Assembly: GCA_023131895.1 (NCBI GenBank)
Contig: JAGLYZ010000004.1
Coordinates: 29,895-93,894, forward strand
DNA: 64,000 nucleotides
Source: Candidatus Parcubacteria bacterium
GTDB taxonomy: Bacteria > Patescibacteriota > Minisyncoccia > Minisyncoccales > JAGMDC01
Direction: 5' to 3'
The notes below the pieces were generated by a model that was given only the letters and a program-made list of their open reading frames with translations, was not told the origin of the DNA and made no database searches. Of this stretch, positions 1 to 60,077 are shown one piece after another. The position numbers and the translations under genes are program-made. Every line of letters starts with the position of its first letter. Position 1 is the stretch's first letter.

Positions 1-8
1 AGCGAAGG

Positions 9-95
9 CGGAGAGGGCGGGATTTGAACCCACAAGCGGCTTTTTACACCGCGAGAGATTAGCAATCTCTTGCCGTACCATTGGGCCACCTCTCC
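9..95 (-). tRNA. tRNA-Ser (anticodon GCU), long variable arm
   Basis: Reverse complement folds as a cloverleaf: acceptor GGAGAGG/CCTCTCC, anticodon stem AGAGA/TCTCT with loop TTGCTAA, variable-arm stem GCGG/CCGC, T-loop TTCAAAT. Confidence 0.9.
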
Positions 96-3212: not shown

Positions 3213-3491
3213 ATGAACCTGAATTTAAACGAAGACAAACAAAAAAGATTAGTGTATTTAATTATAATTCTTATTGTTTTGGTTATAATAGCTTTATTTG
3301 TTTTTAGTAAAAGCTTTTTTGTAAAACAGCCGTCAATCCCTTTAGGTACTAGTTTTGGATTACAAGAAATCAGTATCAATTTTAATATTTTAGAAAATCC
3401 TTTTGTGCAGATGCTTGAACCATTTGAAGAAATTTCTTATCCTTCAGAAGAAATAGAAATAGGCAGAGAAAACCCGTTTATTACATACTAA
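3213..3491 (+). CDS. Small single-pass membrane protein, unknown function
   Basis: ORF with one hydrophobic helix (LVYLIIILIVLVIIALFVF), tightly packed in the pil operon. Confidence 0.35.
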   Translation: MNLNLNEDKQKRLVYLIIILIVLVIIALFVFSKSFFVKQPSIPLGTSFGLQEISINFNILENPFVQMLEPFEEISYPSEEIEIGRENPFITY

Positions 3492-3586
3492 AACATTTTA
3501 ACATTTTAACATTTTAGCATTTAAACATTTCTGATTTCATTTTTTGTTAATATGTTAATATGTTAGTATGTTAATATGTTTAAATG
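3491..3586 (+). repeat. Phased 8-nt repeat array (AACATNNN units, then NNNNATGT units) ending in the pilB start codon
   Basis: Octamers in one register from 3492. ATGs at 3552, 3560, 3568, 3576 and 3584, the last being the pilB start. By-eye alignment shows about 85% identity to the array at 59675-59786. Confidence 0.8.
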
Positions 3587-5311
3587 AGTTTGATAAATCA
3601 GTTAGTAGAAAAAGGTGTCTTAAATAAAAAAGCAGCTGCTTCTTTAAAAAAGGAAATAGAATTATCTGGTAAAAGAGAAGAAGAAATAATTTTACAACAA
3701 GGAATAATTAAGGAAGATGCTTTATTCCAATTAAAAAGCGAGAGTTTGAAGGTTCCTTTAAAAGAAGTTGAGCCATCAGAAGTTCTTTTAGAAGTTTTGA
3801 GATTAATTCCCAGAGATGCTGCTGAGTTTTATCATATGGTTCCTATTAGTAAAAAAGATAGGACATTGGAGATAGGGATGGTTTATCCGGATAATTTAAA
3901 AGCCCAGGAAGCTTTAAAATTTTTAACAAGACGCGAAGGCTATTCTTTCAGAGTTTATCTAATCACTTTATCTAATTTCAGGGAGCTTTTAAAACGATAT
4001 TGGACCCTTAAAAAAGAAGTAAAAAAGGCGCTTACAGAGGTGGAAACAGAAATAGCTGAAGATGAAGTTGAAATTTCTAAGAAAGCGGCTGAATTAGAAA
4101 AGCTGGGAGAAGAGGCTCCTATTTCCAAAATTGTTTCTGTAATTCTAAAACACTCTGTAGACGGGAATGCTTCTGATATCCACATTGAACCAATAAGAGA
4201 ACAGCTGAGAGTAAGGTTTCGTCTTGATGGAATATTGCATTCCTCACTTTTTTTACCTTTAAAAATTCATCCGGCAGTGGTAGCTCGGATTAAGATTTTA
4301 GCAGAGCTAAAAATTGACGAAACTAGGGTTCCTCAAGACGGCAGGATTGGCGCTAAAATTAGCAATAAAGATATTGATTTCAGGGTTTCTACTTTCCCTA
4401 CTATATTGGGCGAGAAAGTAGTGATGAGAGTTCTTGACCCGTCCAAGGGATTAAAAGATTTTAAAAGATTAGGATTAGACGGAAGAAATCTTGAAATTTT
4501 AAACAAAGCAGCTGAAAGACCTTATGGAATGATTTTATCAACTGGGCCTACTGGCTCAGGAAAAAGCACTACATTATATGCTGTTTTACAGATTTTAAAT
4601 AGGGAAGGAGTAAATATTGTTACAATAGAAGATCCAGTGGAGTATTTTATGGAAGGTATTAACCAGTCCCAGACAAAAGAAGAGATTGGCTACGGTTTTG
4701 CTACAGCATTGCGTTCTATTTTAAGGCAGGACCCGGATGTGATTATGGTGGGTGAAATTAGAGATAAAGAGACAGCAGAATTAGCTGTTCATGCTGCTTT
4801 AACCGGGCATATTGTCTTGTCTACCCTTCATACAAATACAGCTGTTGGCGCTATGCCTCGGTTAATTGACTTGGGAATAGAGCCATTTTTACTGCCCCCA
4901 AGCTTAAGCGCAATTTTGGCGCAAAGATTAGTAAGGCGGCTTTGTCCTTTTTGTAAAGAAAAAGTAAAGGCGAATATTAAAGTTAGAGAAAAGATTTTAA
5001 AAGAAATAAATTTTTTGCCAGTTTCTACTAAAGCAGGAATTAAAGTTGATGAACCTATATCTATTTGGCAGGCAAAGGGATGTAAAAAATGCAGGATGCA
5101 GGGATACACTGGAAGGGTTGCTCTTTTTGAAATTTTGGAAATGACTAAAGAGCTTTCAGAAATAGTTTTAAAGGAGCCGTCAGAAAATAATTTCCAAAAA
5201 GAGGCAAAAAGGCAGGGTATGGTTACAATGGCTCAAGACGGCATAATTAAGGTTTTAAATGGAGTTACTTCTATAGAAGAAGTGATTAGGGTTACAAAGG
5301 AAGAAGAATAA
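3584..5311 (+). CDS. pilB: Type IV pilus assembly ATPase PilB (GspE family)
   Basis: Walker A GPTGSGKST, Asp/His boxes, C-terminal tetracysteine (CPFC...CKKC), GSPII_E N-terminal-like domain. Confidence 0.95.
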   Translation: MSLINQLVEKGVLNKKAAASLKKEIELSGKREEEIILQQGIIKEDALFQLKSESLKVPLKEVEPSEVLLEVLRLIPRDAAEFYHMVPISKKDRTLEIGMVYPDNLKAQEALKFLTRREGYSFRVYLITLSNFRELLKRYWTLKKEVKKALTEVETEIAEDEVEISKKAAELEKLGEEAPISKIVSVILKHSVDGNASDIHIEPIREQLRVRFRLDGILHSSLFLPLKIHPAVVARIKILAELKIDETRVPQDGRIGAKISNKDIDFRVSTFPTILGEKVVMRVLDPSKGLKDFKRLGLDGRNLEILNKAAERPYGMILSTGPTGSGKSTTLYAVLQILNREGVNIVTIEDPVEYFMEGINQSQTKEEIGYGFATALRSILRQDPDVIMVGEIRDKETAELAVHAALTGHIVLSTLHTNTAVGAMPRLIDLGIEPFLLPPSLSAILAQRLVRRLCPFCKEKVKANIKVREKILKEINFLPVSTKAGIKVDEPISIWQAKGCKKCRMQGYTGRVALFEILEMTKELSEIVLKEPSENNFQKEAKRQGMVTMAQDGIIKVLNGVTSIEEVIRVTKEEE

Positions 5312-9238: not shown

Positions 9239-9955
9239 ATGCCAACAAGAAAACACAAATTAGCTAATAATGAGATTTATCATATTATTATTAGAGGAGT
9301 AAATGACTCTGAGATTTTTAAAGATATAAATGATTATTATAGAGCAATTTTTTCCATTTACGAATTTAATACTATTAACTCTGTTGATATCAGACAAAAA
9401 AGAGAGCAACGAGCTCTCACAAAGAAAAACATAAACCAAGGTCGGGCCTTCGTTGATAATAGAGACTTGTTAGTAGAGATATTATGTTTTTGTTTTATGC
9501 CGAATCATGTTCATTTATTGCTCAAGCAGATAAAAGATGATGGAATAACTAAATTTATGAGAAAATTGGGTTCAGGTTATGCAAGTTATTTTAACAAAAA
9601 ATACAGTCGAAAAGGTTATCTTTTTCAAGGAAGATTTTTTCCGGTTCATATTAAAACAGACGAACAATTGCAAGTTATTTTTGCTTATATTCACGTTAAT
9701 TCCATATCTTTGATAGAGCCAAAATGGAAAGAAATTGGAATCCAAGATATAGAAAAAGTCATTAGTTTTTTAGAGGATTATAAATGGTCAAGTTATCCTG
9801 ATTATATTGGCAAGAAGAATTTTCCTTCAGTAACCCATAGAAATTTTATGTTAGAAATGATGAATAAAGAAAAAGGTTGCAAAGATTTTATTGAAAATTG
9901 GATTAGGTACAAAAGCAAGATTAAAAAATTGCCAGATATTGTCTTGAAGAGCTAA
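9239..9955 (+). CDS. REP-associated tyrosine transposase-like protein (IS200/IS605 TnpA Y1 family, RAYT-like)
   Basis: HUH motif in MPNHVHLLL. Tyr-containing AYIHVN motif typical of Y1 transposases. Flanked by REP-like hairpins in opposite orientation. Confidence 0.8.
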   Translation: MPTRKHKLANNEIYHIIIRGVNDSEIFKDINDYYRAIFSIYEFNTINSVDIRQKREQRALTKKNINQGRAFVDNRDLLVEILCFCFMPNHVHLLLKQIKDDGITKFMRKLGSGYASYFNKKYSRKGYLFQGRFFPVHIKTDEQLQVIFAYIHVNSISLIEPKWKEIGIQDIEKVISFLEDYKWSSYPDYIGKKNFPSVTHRNFMLEMMNKEKGCKDFIENWIRYKSKIKKLPDIVLKS

Positions 9956-10850: not shown

Positions 10851-10928
10851 TAAAATAATAATTTGAAATTTGTCATTTGACATTGATTTGGAATAATTTG
10901 AGATAATTTGAAATAATTTTAAAAGTTT

Positions 10929-11498
10929 ATGTTAAAATGTTATAATGTTAAAATGAATAAGGCAATGACCTTGATTGAAGTTTTGGTTGTTATTGCCATA
11001 ATGCTTATTCTTATGGCAGTAGCAGTATTTGTAAATCCCAGGCCTTCAGTAGAGCTTGATAACGCTGCTCGGCAATTGGTAAGCGACCTCCGCCGCGCCC
11101 AAAACATGGCAATGTCAGCTTCAACTCAAATAGATGGATGGGGTAATGAGATTGTTCCTTGCGGCTATGGAATTTATACTCCAAATACACAGAAATATGT
11201 TATATTTTATAACGAGACAGATTGTTCAAAATTTCAGCACTGGGGAGGACCCAATCCGCCCTGGCAGGGTAGTATAGATTTTGAAACAGTGGATTTTACA
11301 GATGTAGCTCCGGGCATTACAATAACTCAAGGAGTTTCTTTAAGCATTTATTTTATTCCTCCAAGTGGAACTACTTATATTAATGGAGATTATCCACTTA
11401 TTCCTCCTCCACCTTTGCCTTACTTTGAACTTACAGCTTCCGACGGCTCTATTAGAACTGTCACTGTCACTTCAGCCGGGAAGATTGAAATACAGTAA
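10929..11498 (+). CDS. Minor pilin, GspH/FimT-like (start probably ATG 10953)
   Basis: MNKA-MTLIEVLVVIAIM prepilin-type N-terminus. First of four consecutive pilin-like genes. The upstream part of the ORF lies in the 8-nt ATG ladder. Confidence 0.7.
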   Translation: MLKCYNVKMNKAMTLIEVLVVIAIMLILMAVAVFVNPRPSVELDNAARQLVSDLRRAQNMAMSASTQIDGWGNEIVPCGYGIYTPNTQKYVIFYNETDCSKFQHWGGPNPPWQGSIDFETVDFTDVAPGITITQGVSLSIYFIPPSGTTYINGDYPLIPPPPLPYFELTASDGSIRTVTVTSAGKIEIQ

Positions 11499-11536
11499 AT
11501 CATGTTAACATATTAACATACTAATATCTTAATAAT

Positions 11537-11569
11537 ATGCTTAAATGTTTAAATGCTAAAAAGTTAAAA
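11537..11569 (+). repeat. 33-nt direct repeat, left copy (duplicate of the 5' end of the gene at 12232)
   Basis: ATGCTTAAATGTTTAAATGCTAAAAAGTTAAAA versus ATGTTTAAATGTTTAAATGCTAAAAAGTTAAAA at 12232-12264 (one mismatch). Confidence 0.8.
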
Positions 11570-11664
11570 AGGGGACTTGACAAGATTTTTGGATTTGTTA
11601 AGATTAAAGTAGTTAACCCCCCCTGTGCTTATTTTTTATAGGTGCAGGGCTTTTTATTTCTTTT

Positions 11665-12208
11665 ATGGAAAATAGAGTTTTTATTATAATTGACGGAAGT
11701 AATTTCTATCATCGTTTAAAAGAATGAATTAAAACTTACAAATCTTTTAAATTTTGATTATGAAAAATTTACCCAATTTTTAATTAGCAAAAGAAGTTTA
11801 GTTTTAAAGAAATATTATATTGGAGCAATCAAAGAAGAATATAATAATCTCAAAAGTAGAATATTAATGAAAAATCAAAGAAAATTATTAGGCAAGCTCC
11901 AAAAACAAGGATGGGAAATAGGTTTTGGCCATATGTTAAAAACTGATAAATATCACGAAAAAGGAGTTGATGTTTTAATGGCAGTTGACTTATTAGCTGG
12001 GGCATGTGAAAATATATATGATACAGCAATTTTAGTAAGCTCTGACACTGATCTTATCCCAGCAATTGAAAAAGCTCGTTCAATGAAAAAGAAAATAGAA
12101 TATATTGGTTTGTCGCATAAACCTTCTTACGCTTTAATAGCAAATTCAGATATAAGAAAATTACTGATTGAGGACGAGTTGTTAAGGTGTTTCAAAGAAA
12201 CAAAATAA
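11665..12208 (+). pseudogene. NYN/LabA-like (DUF88) domain gene with a +1 frameshift
   Basis: ATG 11665 encodes MENRVFIIIDGSNFYHRLKE then TGA at 11725. Skipping the single T at 11725 continues as ELKLTNLLNFDYEKF...GVDVLMAVDLL...SSDTDLIPAIE into the ORF ending at 12208. Confidence 0.7.
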
Positions 12209-12231: not shown

Positions 12232-12879
12232 ATGTTTAAATGTTTAAATGCTAAAAAGTTAAAATGTGAGGGTTTCAGTTTGCTTGAGGTTTTGGTTGCC
12301 ATTACAGTGCTTATTGTTGGCTTGGTTGGTGCCATAGGTTTGATTGTTTATAATGTTTCTATCAGCAGGGCAAGCCCGGAGAAAATTATCGCTGTTAATT
12401 TAGCGCAGGAGGGAATAGAAGTGGTGAGAAACATCCGTGACAGCAACTGGCTGGCAGGTGTGGTTTGGGATCAAGATATTCCTTCTGGCAATTCTATTCC
12501 TATTTTTACAGATAATAATAGAAATGATTGGCCTTCTGACCCAGATAAATGGAGACTTAGTCATATAGGGGCTGCGGAAAGCTGGAAAGAAGATGTTTAC
12601 TATGATGATATTGATAAATTTTATGGCCAGTCAAAAAAGCAAAGCACTAACCCTGCTCAATTTCCAGACGATTGGATTTCAACAATTTTCACTCGTAAGA
12701 TCACTATTACTGAGTTTTTTGTTATTGATGAGAATCCACGTAAGTTCGCTTTTATTAAGATTGTTATGGCTAAGTTTTGGCCAGACCAAGTAAAAGTAAT
12801 TTCCCAAGTTGATTGGACTGACCGCAGCGGGAATTCTCATACCATCATTCTTGAAAACCATTTGTATAATTGGAGATAG
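12232..12879 (+). CDS. Minor pilin, PilV-like
   Basis: ...KLKCEG followed by FSLLEVLVAITVLIVGL. The only in-frame ATG (12232) is the first rung of the 8-nt ATG ladder. Confidence 0.65.
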   Translation: MFKCLNAKKLKCEGFSLLEVLVAITVLIVGLVGAIGLIVYNVSISRASPEKIIAVNLAQEGIEVVRNIRDSNWLAGVVWDQDIPSGNSIPIFTDNNRNDWPSDPDKWRLSHIGAAESWKEDVYYDDIDKFYGQSKKQSTNPAQFPDDWISTIFTRKITITEFFVIDENPRKFAFIKIVMAKFWPDQVKVISQVDWTDRSGNSHTIILENHLYNWR

Positions 12880-12906
12880 TAAATCACATAACACATAACA
12901 CATAAC

Positions 12907-13446
12907 ATGGAACACATAACACATAACAAAAAAGCTTTTACTCTTATTGAAATTCTTGTTGCAGTAACTATTTTTGTATTAGTTGTTGCTGCTGCAATAG
13001 GAATTTTTGTTTCCAGTATGCAAGGCAAGGAGCGAGTTAATCAATTAAAAGAAATAGAAGACAATGCTCGCTATGTAATGGAAATGATGAGCAGGGAAAT
13101 TAGAATGGGTTATGAAATTGCCAGTGATGAAGCAGATACCTTTGATTCAGAAATAGATTTTGTTGATTCTTCAGTTGTTTCAATAAAACTATGCAGAGCA
13201 GACGAAAATGGTAATTGCGATTCAAATGGAGATTATTTAGCAAAAAGAGAAGAAAGCGCTGCTCCTTCAAGTAATCATTTGATCACTTCCAGCAAAGTAA
13301 AAATTACTAATCTTATTTTCTATGTTAATGATTTTGATTTAACTAATAGTCCCCAACCAAGAGTAACTATCTCAATGACTGTTGCTTCAAAAGATGATGC
13401 AGTAAGCATGGATTTCCAGACCACTCTTTCTCCAAGAATATATTAA
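12907..13446 (+). CDS. Minor pilin, PilW-like
   Basis: MEHITHNKKA followed by FTLIEILVAVTIFVLVV. The leader is encoded by CACATAA heptamer repeats. Confidence 0.6.
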   Translation: MEHITHNKKAFTLIEILVAVTIFVLVVAAAIGIFVSSMQGKERVNQLKEIEDNARYVMEMMSREIRMGYEIASDEADTFDSEIDFVDSSVVSIKLCRADENGNCDSNGDYLAKREESAAPSSNHLITSSKVKITNLIFYVNDFDLTNSPQPRVTISMTVASKDDAVSMDFQTTLSPRIY

Positions 13447-35610: not shown

Positions 35611-35686
35611 TGGTGGGCGTGGCAGGACTCGAACCTGCGAACCTAACGCTTATAAGACGTTTGCTCTACCACTGAGCTACACGCCC
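35611..35686 (-). tRNA. tRNA-Ile (anticodon UAU), CCA encoded
   Basis: Acceptor GGGCGTG/CACGCCC, D-arm GCTC-AGTGGTA-GAGC, anticodon stem AACGT/GCGTT with loop CTTATAA, T-arm GCAGG-TTCGAGT-CCTGC. The variable region appears to be 6 nt. Confidence 0.75.
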
Positions 35687-47226: not shown

Positions 47227-47323
47227 CTGTTTAGTACTACTTTGTTATGGATTTTATTCTTGATAAAAACGGCTATAGATCTGGCTGTTTTTTTGTAGAA
47301 ATCGGGTTTTTGTGATAGAATAA

Positions 47324-47403
47324 AACATATAAACATACTAACATATAAACATACTAACATATAAACGAATGCTTAAATGTTAAAATGTTTGAATGTTTAG
47401 ATG
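47324..47403 (+). repeat. Phased 8-nt repeat array (5 x AACATNNN then 5 x NNNNNATG) ending in the ftsK start codon
   Basis: Ten octamers in a single register. ATGs at 47369, 47377, 47385, 47393 and 47401, the last being the ftsK start. Confidence 0.85.
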
Positions 47404-49620
47404 ATATTGGTGGCTAAGAAAAAGAAAAACAAGAAGAATAAAAAAAATATAACCAGAAAAAAAGAGAGAAAACCTCTTTTTCACCTTGATTTGTTAGAAG
47501 ACACAAAGAGAAAAATTTATGGCGTCTTAATGTTTTTAGGCGCAATTATTATTTCTCTTTCTTTTTTTAACTTATTTGGCAGAGCTGGCCAGATTTTTAT
47601 GGATTTTTCTGACTCGTTGATTGGAAAGGCGCTTTTTATTCTGCCTTTGCTTTTTATTTTAGGAGGAGTAGTTTTCTTTAGCCAGAAATATGAGCCAGAA
47701 ATAAAAAAGAATAAATTAGCTATATTTTTTGGAATTATTGTTTTGGTCTTAGGCGTATCTGGAATTTTAGGCATTACAAGCATAGATGAAGAAATAAAGC
47801 AGGGCGGATGGCTTGGTTATTTAATATCTTTTCCTTTAATCAAGGCATTTGGGACTTTGGGCGCTAGTATTGTGTTTATAACAGTAATTATTATCGGCGG
47901 CTTAATTCTTTGGCAGATTAGCCCAAAGCCGTTGAAAAAAGAAGAACCCGCCTTTGCTAAAGCTCCGGCGGGCAAGGAAAAGCCTTCATTCGCGCCCACC
48001 TTTGCTAAAGCTACGGTGAGTGAAAAAGAAAAACCGATAATTAGCGATATTTTAAAGAAAAAAGAAATTAAACTTGAATCTGCGATAGAGAAAGAAAAAG
48101 AGGAGACATCGTCCATTTTTAAATTAAAAACAAAACCGCTTACTATTTTTTCAGGAGAGGACTATCAGCCGTTGCCATTGGATTTGCTGGCAAAAGATCA
48201 GGGCTCTCCTACTTCTGGAGATACTAAAATAAATGCAGCTATAATTCAGAGAACTCTTCAAAATTTTGATATTCCAGTAGAAATGGCGGAAGTAAATATT
48301 GGACCAACAGTTACACAGTATACTTTTAAGCCCGCAGAAGGAGTAAAACTCTCAAAAATTACTTCTTTGAATAATGATTTATCATTAGCTTTAGCCGCTC
48401 ATCCTATTAGGATTGAAGCCCCTGTTCCTGGCAGGTCATTAGTAGGAGTTGAAATACCTAACAAAGGCAGAGCCAGGGTTGGCTTAAGAAACCTATTAGA
48501 GCAGCCGGAATTCCAGAATTCTCCTTCTAAACTTACTTTTCCTTTAGGAAGAGATGTAGCCGGCAATCCTGTTTTTGGCGATTTAAGCAAAATGCCGCAT
48601 CTTTTAGTGGCTGGAAGCACTGGCAGTGGGAAAACCATTTGTCTTAATAATATTATTGCAAGCTTGCTTTATAGAAATTCTTCAGAGAGTTTAAGATTTA
48701 TTTTAGTTGATCCCAAAAGAGTAGAATTTTCTATTTACAATGGTTTGCCGCATTTACTGTCTTCAGTGATCCTAACCCCGCAGAAAACAATCAATGTTTT
48801 AAAATGGTTGATTACAGAAATGGAAAGAAGATTTGACGTGCTATCTGAAGCCAAGACAAAAAATATAGCCGGCTATAATGAGATTGCAGCTGGAACTCAG
48901 AAAATAAATGGAGAAGCATTAGAGCCATTGCCTTATATTGTTTTGATTATTGATGAATTAGCTGATGTTATGGCTGCTCGCGGCAGAGAGGTTGAGGCAG
49001 GTATTGTCCGCTTGGCGCAGATGTCTCGCGCAGTAGGAATTCATTTAATTCTAGCTACTCAAAGGCCTTCAGTAGAAGTAATTACAGGACTTATCAAAGC
49101 AAATATTACAAGCAGAATCGCTTTTCAGGTTGCTTCTCAGATTGATTCTCGAACTATTTTAGATATGGCTGGCGCAGAAAAGCTTTTAGGTTTGGGAGAT
49201 ATGCTGTTTATTTCTGCAGAAGTTGCGAAACCGAAAAGAATCCAATGCGCTTATGTTTCAGAAAAAGAGATGAAGAATGTAACTAATTGGCTGAAAAAAT
49301 CAGAAGTTCCGTCAAAAGAAATTTCAGAGGAAAAAGAAAAAATAGATAAAGAAATCTCAAATTCAGTCAGTTCCATAGAAGAAGCATTGGAAAAAGAAGA
49401 GAGTTTTTATGATGAAGATCCGCTTTACGAGGAAGCGAAAAGAATCATCATTGAATCAAAAAAAGCGTCTGCTTCTCTGCTGCAAAGAAGATTGCGGCTT
49501 GGATATGCCCGGGCTGCCCGTTTGATAGATACATTAGAGGAAAGAGGAATAGTTGGTCCGTCAGACGGAGCAAAACCAAGAGAAGTTTATATTATTGAAG
49601 AAAACGAAGAAAAGATATAG
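47401..49620 (+). CDS. ftsK: DNA translocase FtsK/SpoIIIE
   Basis: N-terminal TM helices, low-complexity linker, motor domain with Walker A GSTGSGKT, Walker B IVLIIDELAD, C-terminal gamma winged-helix (LLQRRLRLGYARAARLID). Confidence 0.93.
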   Translation: MILVAKKKKNKKNKKNITRKKERKPLFHLDLLEDTKRKIYGVLMFLGAIIISLSFFNLFGRAGQIFMDFSDSLIGKALFILPLLFILGGVVFFSQKYEPEIKKNKLAIFFGIIVLVLGVSGILGITSIDEEIKQGGWLGYLISFPLIKAFGTLGASIVFITVIIIGGLILWQISPKPLKKEEPAFAKAPAGKEKPSFAPTFAKATVSEKEKPIISDILKKKEIKLESAIEKEKEETSSIFKLKTKPLTIFSGEDYQPLPLDLLAKDQGSPTSGDTKINAAIIQRTLQNFDIPVEMAEVNIGPTVTQYTFKPAEGVKLSKITSLNNDLSLALAAHPIRIEAPVPGRSLVGVEIPNKGRARVGLRNLLEQPEFQNSPSKLTFPLGRDVAGNPVFGDLSKMPHLLVAGSTGSGKTICLNNIIASLLYRNSSESLRFILVDPKRVEFSIYNGLPHLLSSVILTPQKTINVLKWLITEMERRFDVLSEAKTKNIAGYNEIAAGTQKINGEALEPLPYIVLIIDELADVMAARGREVEAGIVRLAQMSRAVGIHLILATQRPSVEVITGLIKANITSRIAFQVASQIDSRTILDMAGAEKLLGLGDMLFISAEVAKPKRIQCAYVSEKEMKNVTNWLKKSEVPSKEISEEKEKIDKEISNSVSSIEEALEKEESFYDEDPLYEEAKRIIIESKKASASLLQRRLRLGYARAARLIDTLEERGIVGPSDGAKPREVYIIEENEEKI

Positions 49621-57712: not shown

Positions 57713-59119
57713 CTATTCAAGATAATTCTTTTCAAACCACCAGGTTAGGATTTTTTGGACATCATCTTTGAGGTCGTCGGATTTTAAAAGAACAATTATA
57801 ATATTGTGCGAAGTGTTGTCTGGCAATGGCAATTCAAATATAAATATGCCGGTATATTTTGATTCTATAATAAATCCGGTTTTGCCGCCTAAAAAGTCCT
57901 TGCTTTCCGGAAAAATATTTTTGTTATGCAAATCTTCAAAATGAACTGTTCCAAAATCCTCTATTGTTTCTCCTTTGCTGATTTTCAAAAGAGGAGGCCT
58001 GGTATTGAAAATATATTGGCTCAAATAGAAAAGATCTTGTGCAGTAGAAACGTTTTTTTCGCTTAAGCCGCTCGGGTCGTCGTAAAAAGTATTTTTCATG
58101 CCAATCATTTTTGTTTTTTCATTCATTAATCTTATTGTTTTTTCTCTTCCTGAAAAGCGGGTTAAAATTTCAGCAGCGTCATTAGATGATTGAGTTAAAA
58201 GAGGATGAAGGAGTTCAACTAAATTGTATTTTTTTCCAGCTTCTAATCCTGGCGTAGAGCCATATGCTTTTAACATTTCTTTTGTAACCCAGATTGATTT
58301 TCTTAAATCATTATTCTCAATAGCAGCTATGGCAGTCATTAGTTTAGTTAAAGAAGCTATGGGCATTATTTTTTCAGGATTTTTTTCAGCCAAAATATAA
58401 TAATTATCAAGGTCGGCAATTAAATAAGATTCAGCAGATATTTCAGAAATAACGAAGGTCGGGCCTTCGTTGGCTAACGAAGGCCCGACCTTCGTTAGCT
58501 TGTCAATTATTAAAACAGGCATTTCTATCTCTGCAGCATTATAAATGTATTCTGCATCTTCATTAGAGAATCTAACACAACCGCCAGTATAATTGAATTC
58601 AGTTGATTGGCCATTGGAATAATACGGTTCTCCGTGAATATAGTATTTACCGTAAAAATTAATGCTCCATGGCATATAAACATGAGCAATATTGGAAAAA
58701 GCAGTTTTGTGTCCGGAAATCACTTTATAAAGACCCGAAGGAACTCCTCCCCAAAATTCAGGATCTCCTTTGGCTAAAATAGGAAGTTCTTTTTCTAATG
58801 CGCCATTTTTATAAATTTGAGCTTTCATTTCTGAAAGATTAATTTCTAAAAAATCTGTTTTTTTAGAAATAAATTCCTGCCTTTTTTCAAAACCAAAATC
58901 TTTTAATTGTTTTAGTTTTATTTCTTTTTGCTTGAGTCCTTGAAGCGTATCAGCGCTGAGAATAGTCTGATTACTTTTAGTCTCTACAAAAATTTCATTG
59001 CCAGGCATTATAAAAATTAAAAAAGCAAAAAGCCCGATTAAAAGGGCTAAAAAAATAATAGATATGCAGTTTTTTTTCAGTTTAGAACTAATCATCAGTT
59101 TATCCCGCACCTTTTTCAA
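57713..59119 (-). CDS. Fusion of an L,D-transpeptidase (YkuD) domain and a D-alanyl-D-alanine carboxypeptidase (peptidase S11) domain
   Basis: YkuD catalytic block YIHGEP...TGGCVRF. S11 SxxK motif PIASLTKLMT plus SSND (SxN). REP pair in-frame between the domains. Confidence 0.8.
   Translation of the reverse strand: MKKVRDKLMISSKLKKNCISIIFLALLIGLFAFLIFIMPGNEIFVETKSNQTILSADTLQGLKQKEIKLKQLKDFGFEKRQEFISKKTDFLEINLSEMKAQIYKNGALEKELPILAKGDPEFWGGVPSGLYKVISGHKTAFSNIAHVYMPWSINFYGKYYIHGEPYYSNGQSTEFNYTGGCVRFSNEDAEYIYNAAEIEMPVLIIDKLTKVGPSLANEGPTFVISEISAESYLIADLDNYYILAEKNPEKIMPIASLTKLMTAIAAIENNDLRKSIWVTKEMLKAYGSTPGLEAGKKYNLVELLHPLLTQSSNDAAEILTRFSGREKTIRLMNEKTKMIGMKNTFYDDPSGLSEKNVSTAQDLFYLSQYIFNTRPPLLKISKGETIEDFGTVHFEDLHNKNIFPESKDFLGGKTGFIIESKYTGIFIFELPLPDNTSHNIIIVLLKSDDLKDDVQKILTWWFEKNYLE
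58451..58497. repeat. Inverted pair of REP-like hairpins inside a CDS
   Basis: AACGAAGG-TCGGG-CCTTCGTT GGC TAACGAAGG-CCCGA-CCTTCGTTA. Translated (minus strand) within KLTKVGPSLANEGPTFVI. Confidence 0.85.
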
Positions 59120-59594: not shown

Positions 59595-59674
59595 ATTATA
59601 TTAGAATATCACAATAATTATTTTCTGGCAATGTTGACAAAAATTTTGTTTTGTTTAAGATAGAGAAGTGATTA

Positions 59675-59786
59675 CAACATCTTAACATTTTAACATTCAA
59701 ACATCTTAACATTTCTGATTTTATCTTTTGTTAATATGTTAGCATGTTAGTATGCTTAAATGTTATTATGTTAAAATGATTTTATG
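59675..59786 (+). repeat. Phased 8-nt repeat array ending in the groES start codon (homologous to 3491-3586)
   Basis: AACATNNN x5, conserved core TTCTGATTTTATCTTTTG, then ATGs at 59736, 59744, 59752, 59760, 59768, 59776 and 59784, the last being the groES start. Confidence 0.85.
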
Positions 59787-60077
59787 ACTATCCAGCCATT
59801 AACCGATCATATTCTTATTGAGCCGATGAAAAAGGAAGAAAAAACCAAGGCCGGTATTTTGCTTCCAGAAACAGCAGATAAAGAAAGTCCTGAACAAGGA
59901 AAGGTTATTGCTGTTGGTCCTGGCAAAAAAAACAATTCTGGCAATATAGTTCCCATAACAGGGATTAAGCCAGGAGACAGGGTTTTGTTTACAAAATACG
60001 GACCAAATGAAATAAAAATAGATGACAAAGAATATTTAATCGCTAAAGAAGAAGACATACTTGCAATTTTAGAATAA
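59784..60077 (+). CDS. groES: Co-chaperonin GroES
   Basis: IQPLTDHILIEP, mobile-loop-like TKAGILLPE, GKVIAVGPG, GDRVLFTKY. Confidence 0.95.
   Translation: MTIQPLTDHILIEPMKKEEKTKAGILLPETADKESPEQGKVIAVGPGKKNNSGNIVPITGIKPGDRVLFTKYGPNEIKIDDKEYLIAKEEDILAILE

Follow-up and report, generated by a model that had tools for sequence, protein, structure and literature searches.

A palindromic octamer ladder ending at start codons in a Candidatus Parcubacteria genome: a dispersed repeat and possible leader hairpin

Why should ATG triplets recur at exactly 8-nt intervals upstream of a gene and end precisely on its start codon? The question is raised by a 64-kb stretch of a Candidatus Parcubacteria genome (contig JAGLYZ010000004.1, positions 29,895 to 93,894; hereafter the window), in which a ladder of phased octamers precedes the pilus gene pilB and a closely similar one precedes groES. 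An earlier note, made from the letters alone, had described the ladder and had directed attention to its ATGs and to the open reading frames (ORFs) of a few codons that they begin. The window has a G+C content of 34% and belongs to the Patescibacteria, going by its closest relatives, which carry the labels Minisyncoccales, Nealsonbacteria or Parcubacteria. We conclude firmly that the pilB copy and a further copy at ftsK are recent insertions of a family that is dispersed, lineage-specific and changing in 8-nt steps, and that at groES a hairpin between promoter and AUG is conserved between species, whereas the sequence of that hairpin and its ATGs are not. As to what the element does, we favor, with a probability of roughly 45%, a slippage-prone palindromic leader repeat that would form an AU-rich hairpin ending at the AUG and act on the mRNA.

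The ladder at pilB, groES and ftsK

The pilB module fills the space between a 92-aa pilus-operon gene (3213-3491, + strand) and pilB itself (3584-5311, + strand), a T2SSE/MshEN ATPase of 575 aa whose two domains identify it as PilB, within a pilM-pilO-pilB-pilT-pilC cluster that is followed by pseudopilin genes. On re-reading, positions 3491-3586 matched the single-register octamers of the first description exactly. A left arm of five octamers (3492-3531, + strand; AACATTTT three times, AGCATTTA and AACATTTC) is followed by a 13-nt spacer or loop (3532-3544, + strand; TGATTTCATTTTT) and by a right arm composed of TGTTAATA, TGTTAATA, TGTTAGTA, TGTTAATA and TGTTTAAA, then TG (octamers at 3545-3584, + strand). 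The part of the right arm outside the gene (3545-3583, + strand) ends in TGTTTAA and holds ATGs at 3552, 3560, 3568 and 3576; the next 8-nt step reaches 3584, where the fifth in-register rung is the pilB start codon, just as first reported. In outline the arrays are AACATNNN and TGTTANNA, five times each, and TRF finds two period-8 arrays of 4.9 and 4.5 copies. The words of the left arm had been called the complement of those of the right arm, and the arms prove to be 81% complementary over 37 nt. Most rungs were also said to open ORFs of 2-5 codons; those at pilB bear this out, giving MLIC, MLVC, a 19-codon ORF and MFK. The likeness to the groES module, put at about 85% by eye, amounts to 83 of 96 identical positions (86.5%) in a colinear alignment with one 8-nt indel, and the two modules have in common a non-repetitive spacer that differs by 2 substitutions and was seen in this species only.

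The pattern is strongly over-represented in the window, where AACATNNNAACATNNNAACAT (AACAT three times in phase, at most 2 mismatches allowed) has 31 matches against 0.37 expected from shuffles. Phased ATG or CAT chains in the window occur at period 8 only, with none at the other periods from 6 to 10. Six sites carry ladders (3492-3586, 10929-10955, 11499-11565, 12232-12266, 47324-47403 and 59676-59786), four of them (10929, 11499-11565, 12232 and 47324-47403) beyond pilB and groES; every one faces + strand genes and none stands at a - strand gene. Modules range from 73 to 108 nt in length and are built from the octamer A1 T2 G3 T4 T5 W6 A7 W8, in which positions 1, 2, 3 and 5 are conserved at close to 100% in both arms, position 4 is T in 75-90% of units, and position 6 is split between A (58%) and T (42%). 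Units are arranged directly, divergently and convergently.

At groES, a promoter-like site that is kept in sister species (TTGACA-16-TAAGAT; 59634-59661, + strand) predicts a transcript start near 59668, at the 5' foot of the module. Here the left arm is AACATNNN five times (59676-59715, + strand), the spacer lies at 59716-59728 (+ strand), and the right arm (59729-59783, + strand) carries ATGs every 8 nt from 59736 to 59776; the seventh in-register rung is the start of groES (Cpn10; 59784-60077, + strand). A third two-arm module lies between rpoC and ftsK-recA, directly 3' of a promoter-like site (TTGTAG-17-(TGa)TAGAAT; 47293-47321, + strand), with a left arm of AACATATA/AACATACT five times (47324-47363, + strand) and a right arm of ATGCTTAA, ATGTTAAA, ATGTTTGA and ATGTTTAG (47369-47400, + strand) that brings an in-register ATG to 47401. 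The true start of FtsK may instead be the GTG at 47410, 9 nt downstream and in frame, because the conserved N-terminus is (M/V)AKKK.

The arms of all three modules are predicted to pair in RNA. The pilB fold consists of 7-bp helices with one U.U mismatch per 8 nt (-24.9 kcal/mol, z -4.2), the groES fold reaches -24.8 kcal/mol (z -2.9 to -3.9), and the ftsK fold, which has its AUG inside the stem, reaches -16.3 kcal/mol (z -3.1); across modules the 3' foot of the stem is 0-5 nt from the AUG. With promoter-like sites directly 5' of the groES and ftsK modules, and the 5' foot of each stem at the predicted transcript start, the whole leader at these two genes would be a single hairpin. No promoter-like site was found 5' of the pilB module, which would therefore be transcribed within its operon. 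When arms were swapped between the three window modules, the chimeric hairpins were predicted to be as stable as the native ones, and such interchangeable arms indicate that complementarity stems from the shared word.

Insertion and turnover among relatives

In the four nearest relatives (PilB 89, 82, 81 and 74% identical), the gene upstream of pilB has 91-93 aa, the distance from its stop codon to the pilB ATG is 18, 2, 2 and 4 nt, and the flanks of this junction are conserved (...CATACTAA / ATGAGTTT...). The 92-nt module is absent from all four, and the short junction marks it as an insertion peculiar to the lineage of the window. A comparison of unit copy number between strains, which the earlier note had proposed, gives a difference of one octamer: strain L211 (PilB 99% identical) has a 100-nt gap with one extra TGTTAATA (3 vs 2) and is otherwise identical. 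At ftsK, two relatives share the same terminator and the same TTGTAG-N17-TAAAAT promoter, with the start only 7-17 nt later, while in the window a module of about 73 nt is inserted between the -10 hexamer (47316-47321) and AGATGATATT. One relative without the ftsK module, L218, has ...AGATGATATTATGGCT after its -10 hexamer (1484-1503), which places a pair of ATGs, with an 8-nt step between them, at the predicted transcript start; this pair is a possible two-rung seed of a ladder.

A different kind of change is seen at groES. The two sister species (GroES 95% and 86% identical) have in common with the window the promoter (TTGACA..TAAGAT) and the next 11 nt (AGAGAAGTRAT), past which the window and the sisters each carry a different tandem-repeat palindrome before homology resumes at the groES ATG. 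There is no ATG ladder at groES in either sister: the palindrome of the first, at -20.5 kcal/mol, pairs AATTTTC (4.4 copies) with GAAATT words, and that of the second, at -41 kcal/mol (z -3.4), is made of CCAATGA/TCATTGG words. Among 67 distinct groES upstream regions of more distant relatives, 25 have a predicted fold with z below -3, and in many of these a long extra hairpin separates the CIRCE operator from the AUG, which it approaches to within 1-8 nt at its 3' foot. Different words make up these hairpins, such as TACGAAT/ATTCGTA, or TGTTAGA/TCTAACA with the order of the arms reversed. Most of these distant regions, like most relatives among the groES loci L127-L206 and L213-L215, show a CIRCE-like operator (TTAGCACTC-N9-..TGCTAA) downstream of the groES promoter. 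The operator is missing from the window species and the two sisters nearest to it, where only a long palindrome is found at groES, and a search for the operator (TTAGCACTC-N9-GAGTGCTAA, up to 3 mismatches) found 0 matches anywhere in the window, which suggests from sequence that HrcA control was lost in this sub-clade.

These comparisons lend no support to the ATGs and mini-ORFs as the functional point of the ladder. The pilB module is an insertion that four relatives do without, the ftsK copy is an insertion too, the groES palindromes of the two nearest species stand behind the same promoter with no ATG ladder, and the same ladders precede tRNA genes, which are untranslated.

Ladders at other genes and competing explanations

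Under the reading that we favor, each copy would belong to a lineage-specific, dispersed and self-complementary repeat, an "octamer-ladder palindrome" of the form (AACATNNN)n, spacer, (NNNATGTT)n, that would spread to, or be rebuilt at, the short non-coding gap just 5' of start codons. The array would grow and shrink by slippage in 8-nt steps, and changes of this size would keep the register of the start codon. Once transcribed, the arms would form a long, AU-rich stem in which 7-bp helices are broken by a single mismatch every 8 nt and whose foot lies beside the AUG; such a stem, in a lineage with no Shine-Dalgarno sequence, would be expected to set the ease of ribosome loading, and its effect could depend on temperature or on a helicase. 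Protection of the 5' end or service as a processing site would be alternative roles of the stem. The phasing of the ATGs would then be a by-product of the repeated word ATGTT and of 8-nt growth, not a working part. The repeat family, the insertions, the change in copy number, the hairpin kept in position at groES and the predicted folds are seen directly in the sequences, and we infer that the module is transcribed, folds in vivo and affects translation or stability.

Ladders are also found well beyond the window. A search of one genome per species, whose counts here and below are among the matches listed, uncovered at least about 40 Patescibacteria loci with the same imperfect ladder, and at least 53 ladders after in-register extension, the window's own included; the same scan gave many unrelated perfect microsatellites (in Bacteroidota, Kiritimatiellia and others) and is unfit for taxon-wide frequencies. 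Solitary ladders, which have no left arm, number 31, of which 15 have a sense gene of at least 90 aa at or adjoining the ladder and 12 are in register with its start; the corresponding figures for two-arm ladders are 22, 9 and 9. The earlier note held that its view would fail if such arrays were not enriched at start codons genome-wide, and among the Patescibacteria loci it did not fail: the start codon is in register, as the last rung, at 21 of 24 gene-adjacent ladders, where chance would give 1 in 8. The genes behind the ladders are unrelated housekeeping genes (rpoA, ruvB, ruvC, tsf, tsaE and those for MBL-fold, LTD and LigB-like proteins), and the assigned starts are supported by Pfam profiles that align from residues 1-6 onward. 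Other ladders end 4-5 nt before tRNA-Lys and tRNA-Gln (L036, L080) and 15 nt before tRNA-Ser, and six have a separate TTGACA-N17-TAnnnT promoter 8-12 nt downstream. Membership of a competence or SOS regulon (pilB, pseudopilins, ftsK, ruv genes) was rejected, since rpoA, tsf, tsaE, tRNA and glycosyltransferase genes carry ladders as well.

Two of the solitary ladders lie in the window, both at the 5' ends of pseudopilin genes. One (10929-10955, + strand) reads ATGTTAAA, ATGTTATA, ATGTTAAA, ATG and is kept in two sister species, together with an AACAT array past the stop codon of that gene. The other (12232-12266, + strand) reads ATGTTTAA twice, ATGCTAAA, AAGTTAAA, ATG, and its first rung is the sole possible start of the pseudopilin ORF, so the ladder is coding there. 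Past the first pseudopilin stop, and 5' of a TTGACA-N17-TAAGAT promoter, is a degenerate two-arm copy (11499-11565, + strand) that has no significant predicted fold and whose right arm is a paralogue of 12232-12263.

Much of this evidence counts against a hairpin as the whole explanation. More than half of the Patescibacteria ladders lack the left arm and are unable to form one, yet they still end on a start codon in 12 of 15 cases, and no hairpin is possible at the solitary ladders of the window, 10929 and 12232. Solitary ladders lie near sense gene starts in 15 cases and near antisense ones in 4, and a hairpin model leaves both their orientation and the start-codon register unexplained. The ATGTT core is nearly invariant while spacers vary, a pattern more suggestive of sequence recognition than of pairing alone. 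In the modules themselves, the pilB AUG lies 3 nt past the stem foot, just outside the stem, and arm-specific covariation was rejected, swapped arms of the three window modules folding as well as the native ones. Any role of the module at pilB is evidently dispensable, judging from the alignments, because the pilB of relatives does without it.

The next most probable reading, though in our view an unlikely one, is a tandem array of promoters for leaderless transcripts. Each octamer with the following AT would read TGnTAnnAT, an extended -10 element; a start 7 nt past the hexamer would coincide with the A of the ATG that stands two rungs further on, the last good unit would yield an mRNA that starts at the start codon or a tRNA that starts at +1, and the palindrome would let the cassette work in both orientations. 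If the modules are promoters, they are portable ones. The start sites of this lineage accord with such a view. GGAG or GAGG was found at -20 to -5 in 0 of 54 window genes and upstream of 8 of 207 genes in related loci, from which we take it that the lineage does not use Shine-Dalgarno sequences. Hexamers of the form TANNNT stand exactly 6 nt before the ATG at 6 of 26 non-ladder first genes, compared with about 1.3 at other distances, and TGTTAATAT, TGTTAAAAT and TGTTATAAT sit 6 nt before the pilB, groES and pseudopilin ATGs. The tRNA genes of the window (7-95, 23558, 26271 and 35611) have -10-like hexamers 6-11 nt 5' of the mature end (TATAAT plus 6 nt for tRNA-Ile), so that pre-tRNAs would have almost no 5' leader. 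The ladders that end just before tRNA-Lys and tRNA-Gln, and the solitary ladders that face genes in register, would also be expected of promoters.

The units themselves agree less well with this proposal. TG and the T at -7 are always present, but the would-be essential -11 A, at unit position 6, is found in little more than half of the units, and its presence in 12 of 20 critical rungs and in 20 of 39 others, which is no enrichment, counts against a strict leaderless -10 model. Both groES and ftsK already have conserved canonical promoters 5' of the whole module, the six ladders with a TTGACA-N17 promoter of their own have it further on, and a left arm would fire antisense into the pilO-like, rpoC and rpsB genes. 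The order of the arms is reversed in two groES relatives (L137, L198), and the palindromes of the sister species at groES contain no -10-like ladder.

Independently of the ladders, a TATAAT-like hexamer 5-6 nt before the ATG at first genes 10014, 15217, 18414, 25012, 39517 and 40421 suggests leaderless mRNAs, and very short or absent leaders seem common in this lineage. A search of the literature on leaderless transcription or promoter mapping in Patescibacteria found nothing relevant. The tRNA-Ile at 35611-35686 is assigned the anticodon TAT (UAU) by ARAGORN and would be an uncommon reader of AUA, a codon whose reading normally depends on a modified CAU tRNA.

More doubtful is the view that the ladders are neutral or selfish DNA, a slippage-prone or mobile palindrome occupying the few dispensable bases before starts with no consistent effect on expression, its register arising from arrays seeded at, or recombining at, an ATG-containing octamer. 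Insertion polymorphism at pilB and ftsK, the one-unit change between strains, the fast wholesale turnover at groES, the loss of folding in the degenerate copy and the Y1/IS200-like transposase gene in the window are all in keeping with this. Mutation without selection accounts poorly for a core that is conserved beside variable spacers, for a groES leader hairpin that persists in three species and many relatives despite turnover of its sequence, and for a pseudopilin ladder kept in three species. No consistent target-site duplication was seen on comparing the filled sites of the window with empty sites (L207-L210, L217, L218), and the transposase is flanked by different, GC-rich repeats.

Two further proposals are improbable. 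In the first, a protein would bind the 5-bp core AACAT/ATGTT every 8 bp, in direct and inverted orientation, and control initiation at many genes. The conserved A1 T2 G3 T5 core in both arms with variable positions 6-8, the direct, divergent and convergent units, the interchangeable arms, and the placement of arrays at promoters or transcript starts of diverse genes, tRNA genes among them, would suit such an operator; it leaves the in-register start codon unexplained, the unrelated words at groES in the sisters would call for a different protein in each species, and the pilB site is inside an operon, far from any promoter-like site. In the second, which has as little likelihood, the 8-nt unit (ATGTTANN) would combine an extended -10, a start codon and the in-frame stop of the preceding rung in a cassette that registers itself by tandem growth. 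If so, the cassette would be a new kind of portable expression element, supplying leaderless or hairpin-capped "pseudo-leaderless" transcripts to any gene or tRNA behind it in either orientation.

Very improbable, finally, is a translational device in which phased AUGs recruit ribosomes or serve as decoy mini-ORFs, each ending at the TAA/TAG of the unit that follows, and the last one (AUG NNN NNA UGA) overlapping the start for termination-reinitiation: the ATG is the most invariant part of the unit, most rungs give ORFs of 3-4 codons, the UGA of the penultimate rung overlaps AUGA at pilB, groES, ftsK and the pseudopilin gene, and no Shine-Dalgarno sequence guides start selection, but ladders precede tRNA genes too, the groES palindromes of the sisters are ATG-free, the left arm has the same core as its complement without ATGs, and the pilB ladder is missing in relatives. 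Termination-reinitiation at AUGA was rejected as well, ATGA occurring at 14 of 20 ladder genes and at 34 of 55 genes overall, which is no enrichment. For what the leader hairpin leaves unexplained (the solitary ladders, their orientation, the register and the near-invariant core), the promoter, operator and purely mutational explanations remain live.

Several other features were observed around the pseudopilin genes. The right arm of the degenerate module (11537-11640) opens a 33-codon ORF (MLKCLNAKKLKRG...) whose first 27 nt are identical to the start of the pseudopilin at 12232 (MFKCLNAKKLKCEG..., compared over 12232-12300); this ORF seems to be what is left of a pseudopilin 5' end that was duplicated or interrupted by an NYN-domain gene. 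The latter (11666-12208) appears frameshifted, its N-terminal part opening at 11666 and its Pfam match (profile 48-139) falling in the ORF 11867-12208, and upstream of it lie TTGACA-N17-TAAGAT and, in the leader, a GC hairpin with a T-run after it. Just 5' of the ladder at 10929, a 10-nt repeat (ATTTGRAATA 3.8 times, 10886-10923) overlaps a promoter-like region containing TTGACA, which gives this gene start two distinct tandem arrays. The heptamer CACATAA recurs about 6 times at 12885-12928, across the start of the pseudopilin gene 12907-13446 and partly within its ORF, and since a 7-nt slip would change the reading frame, this gene is a candidate phase-variable pilin.

Almost nothing is known of how transcription and translation start in Patescibacteria, or the candidate phyla radiation (CPR). 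Three unusual features of this lineage meet at these loci: the absence of Shine-Dalgarno sequences, promoters that abut starts and tRNA 5' ends, and fast-evolving tandem-repeat palindromes, which take up the last bases before the starts of pilus, chaperone, recombination and core-expression genes. Should the hairpins adjust translation or the lifetime of mRNAs, they would add a simple and rapidly evolvable layer of control to minimal genomes, and at groES they may have replaced the CIRCE/HrcA heat-shock circuit in this sub-clade. The modules offer concrete sites for a first mapping of 5' ends in these organisms and a handle on Patescibacteria gene expression, and they counsel caution to gene callers, as starts here lie inside ATG-rich repeats.

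Comparison with known systems

The view that the ladder matches no described family held up. Rfam returned tRNAs only at gathering score, permissive Rfam scans gave matches far below threshold, mostly to miRNA-precursor models (best 24 bits vs a gathering score of 90.8), and the literature that could be searched contained no description of such elements. An intrinsic terminator was rejected because the module lacks a GC stem and T-run of the kind expected, whereas genuine GC-rich terminators and REPs occur elsewhere in the window. Pumilio-like 8-nt RNA sites, MazF sites and anti-Shine-Dalgarno pairing were also considered, and they find no support.

In many respects the modules resemble the REP/BIME/REPIN, ERIC, Correia (Neisseria) and RUP/BOX (pneumococcal) elements, which are likewise imperfect palindromes of 70-120 nt in many copies within transcribed intergenic DNA, with presence or absence in close relatives, copies more than 85% identical at unrelated operons and predicted hairpins in mRNA. 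They differ in that their arms are AT-rich tandem octamers with a 5-nt invariant core, in abutting start codons in register instead of following genes, in showing no target duplication, and in the change of word between sister species. Traits of miniature inverted-repeat transposable elements are present (terminal inverted repeats, small size, multiple copies, presence or absence between relatives), and no element with AACAT termini that could be an autonomous relative was seen within the 64-kb window. The Y1/IS200-like transposase ORF (9239-9955; Pfam Y1_Tnp, E 8e-11) is itself flanked by GC-rich palindromes, ACGAAGGNCNGNCCTTCGT, of which the window holds six copies (8666, 9211, 9435, 9956, 58452 and 58477), with a tandem doublet at 58450-58500; together they look like a REP/RAYT system in a Patescibacteria genome. 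The ladder as the cognate repeat of this transposase, in the manner of REP/REPIN with RAYT, was rejected on the ground that its flanking repeats are ACGAAGGNCNGNCCTTCGT and not AACAT ladders.

Comparisons with regulatory DNA are more partial. Extended -10 promoters drive leaderless mRNAs in Actinobacteria, Deinococcus and Mycoplasma, and the unit TGnTAnnAT, the 6-nt gap from hexamer to ATG as at other genes and the lack of Shine-Dalgarno sequences recall them, whereas the arrangement in tandem and inverted arrays, the absence of the -11 A from 42% of units and the canonical promoters 5' of two modules do not. Ribbon-helix-helix proteins recognize similar arrays, MetJ at 8-bp met boxes and the omega repressor at 7-bp heptads, direct and inverted; the likeness lies in contiguous units of 7-8 bp in both orientations, off helical phase and near promoters, and it fails in that ladder words differ between sister species and one copy is inside an operon. 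Small proteins of this type are so widespread that finding one would say little. Like the CIRCE operator of HrcA, which distant relatives carry at the same place, the groES module is an inverted repeat between promoter and start, but its sequence is unrelated, three times longer and repeated at other genes. As in simple-sequence contingency loci, one unit is gained or lost between strains at the 5' end of pilus genes; unlike them, the units are imperfect, and an 8-nt change 5' of the ATG leaves the last rungs, the ORF and its reading frame as they were, with no on/off consequence evident.

Leader hairpins that act as RNA thermometers include ROSE, fourU and the 8-bp-repeat thermosensor of Neisseria meningitidis cssA. 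The ladder modules are like them in their predicted AU-rich, regularly mismatched stem by the start codon, in a unit number that changes in 8-nt steps, and in standing in a heat-shock leader, that of groES, in a sub-clade without the CIRCE operator. They are unlike them in having no Shine-Dalgarno sequence to cover, in leaving the pilB AUG just outside the stem, and in also preceding pilB, ftsK, rpoA, ruvB, tsf and tRNA genes. In its behavior the octamer-ladder palindrome thus resembles the REP, ERIC and Correia palindromes and simple-sequence repeats, and its placement and form recall leader hairpins and RNA thermometers.

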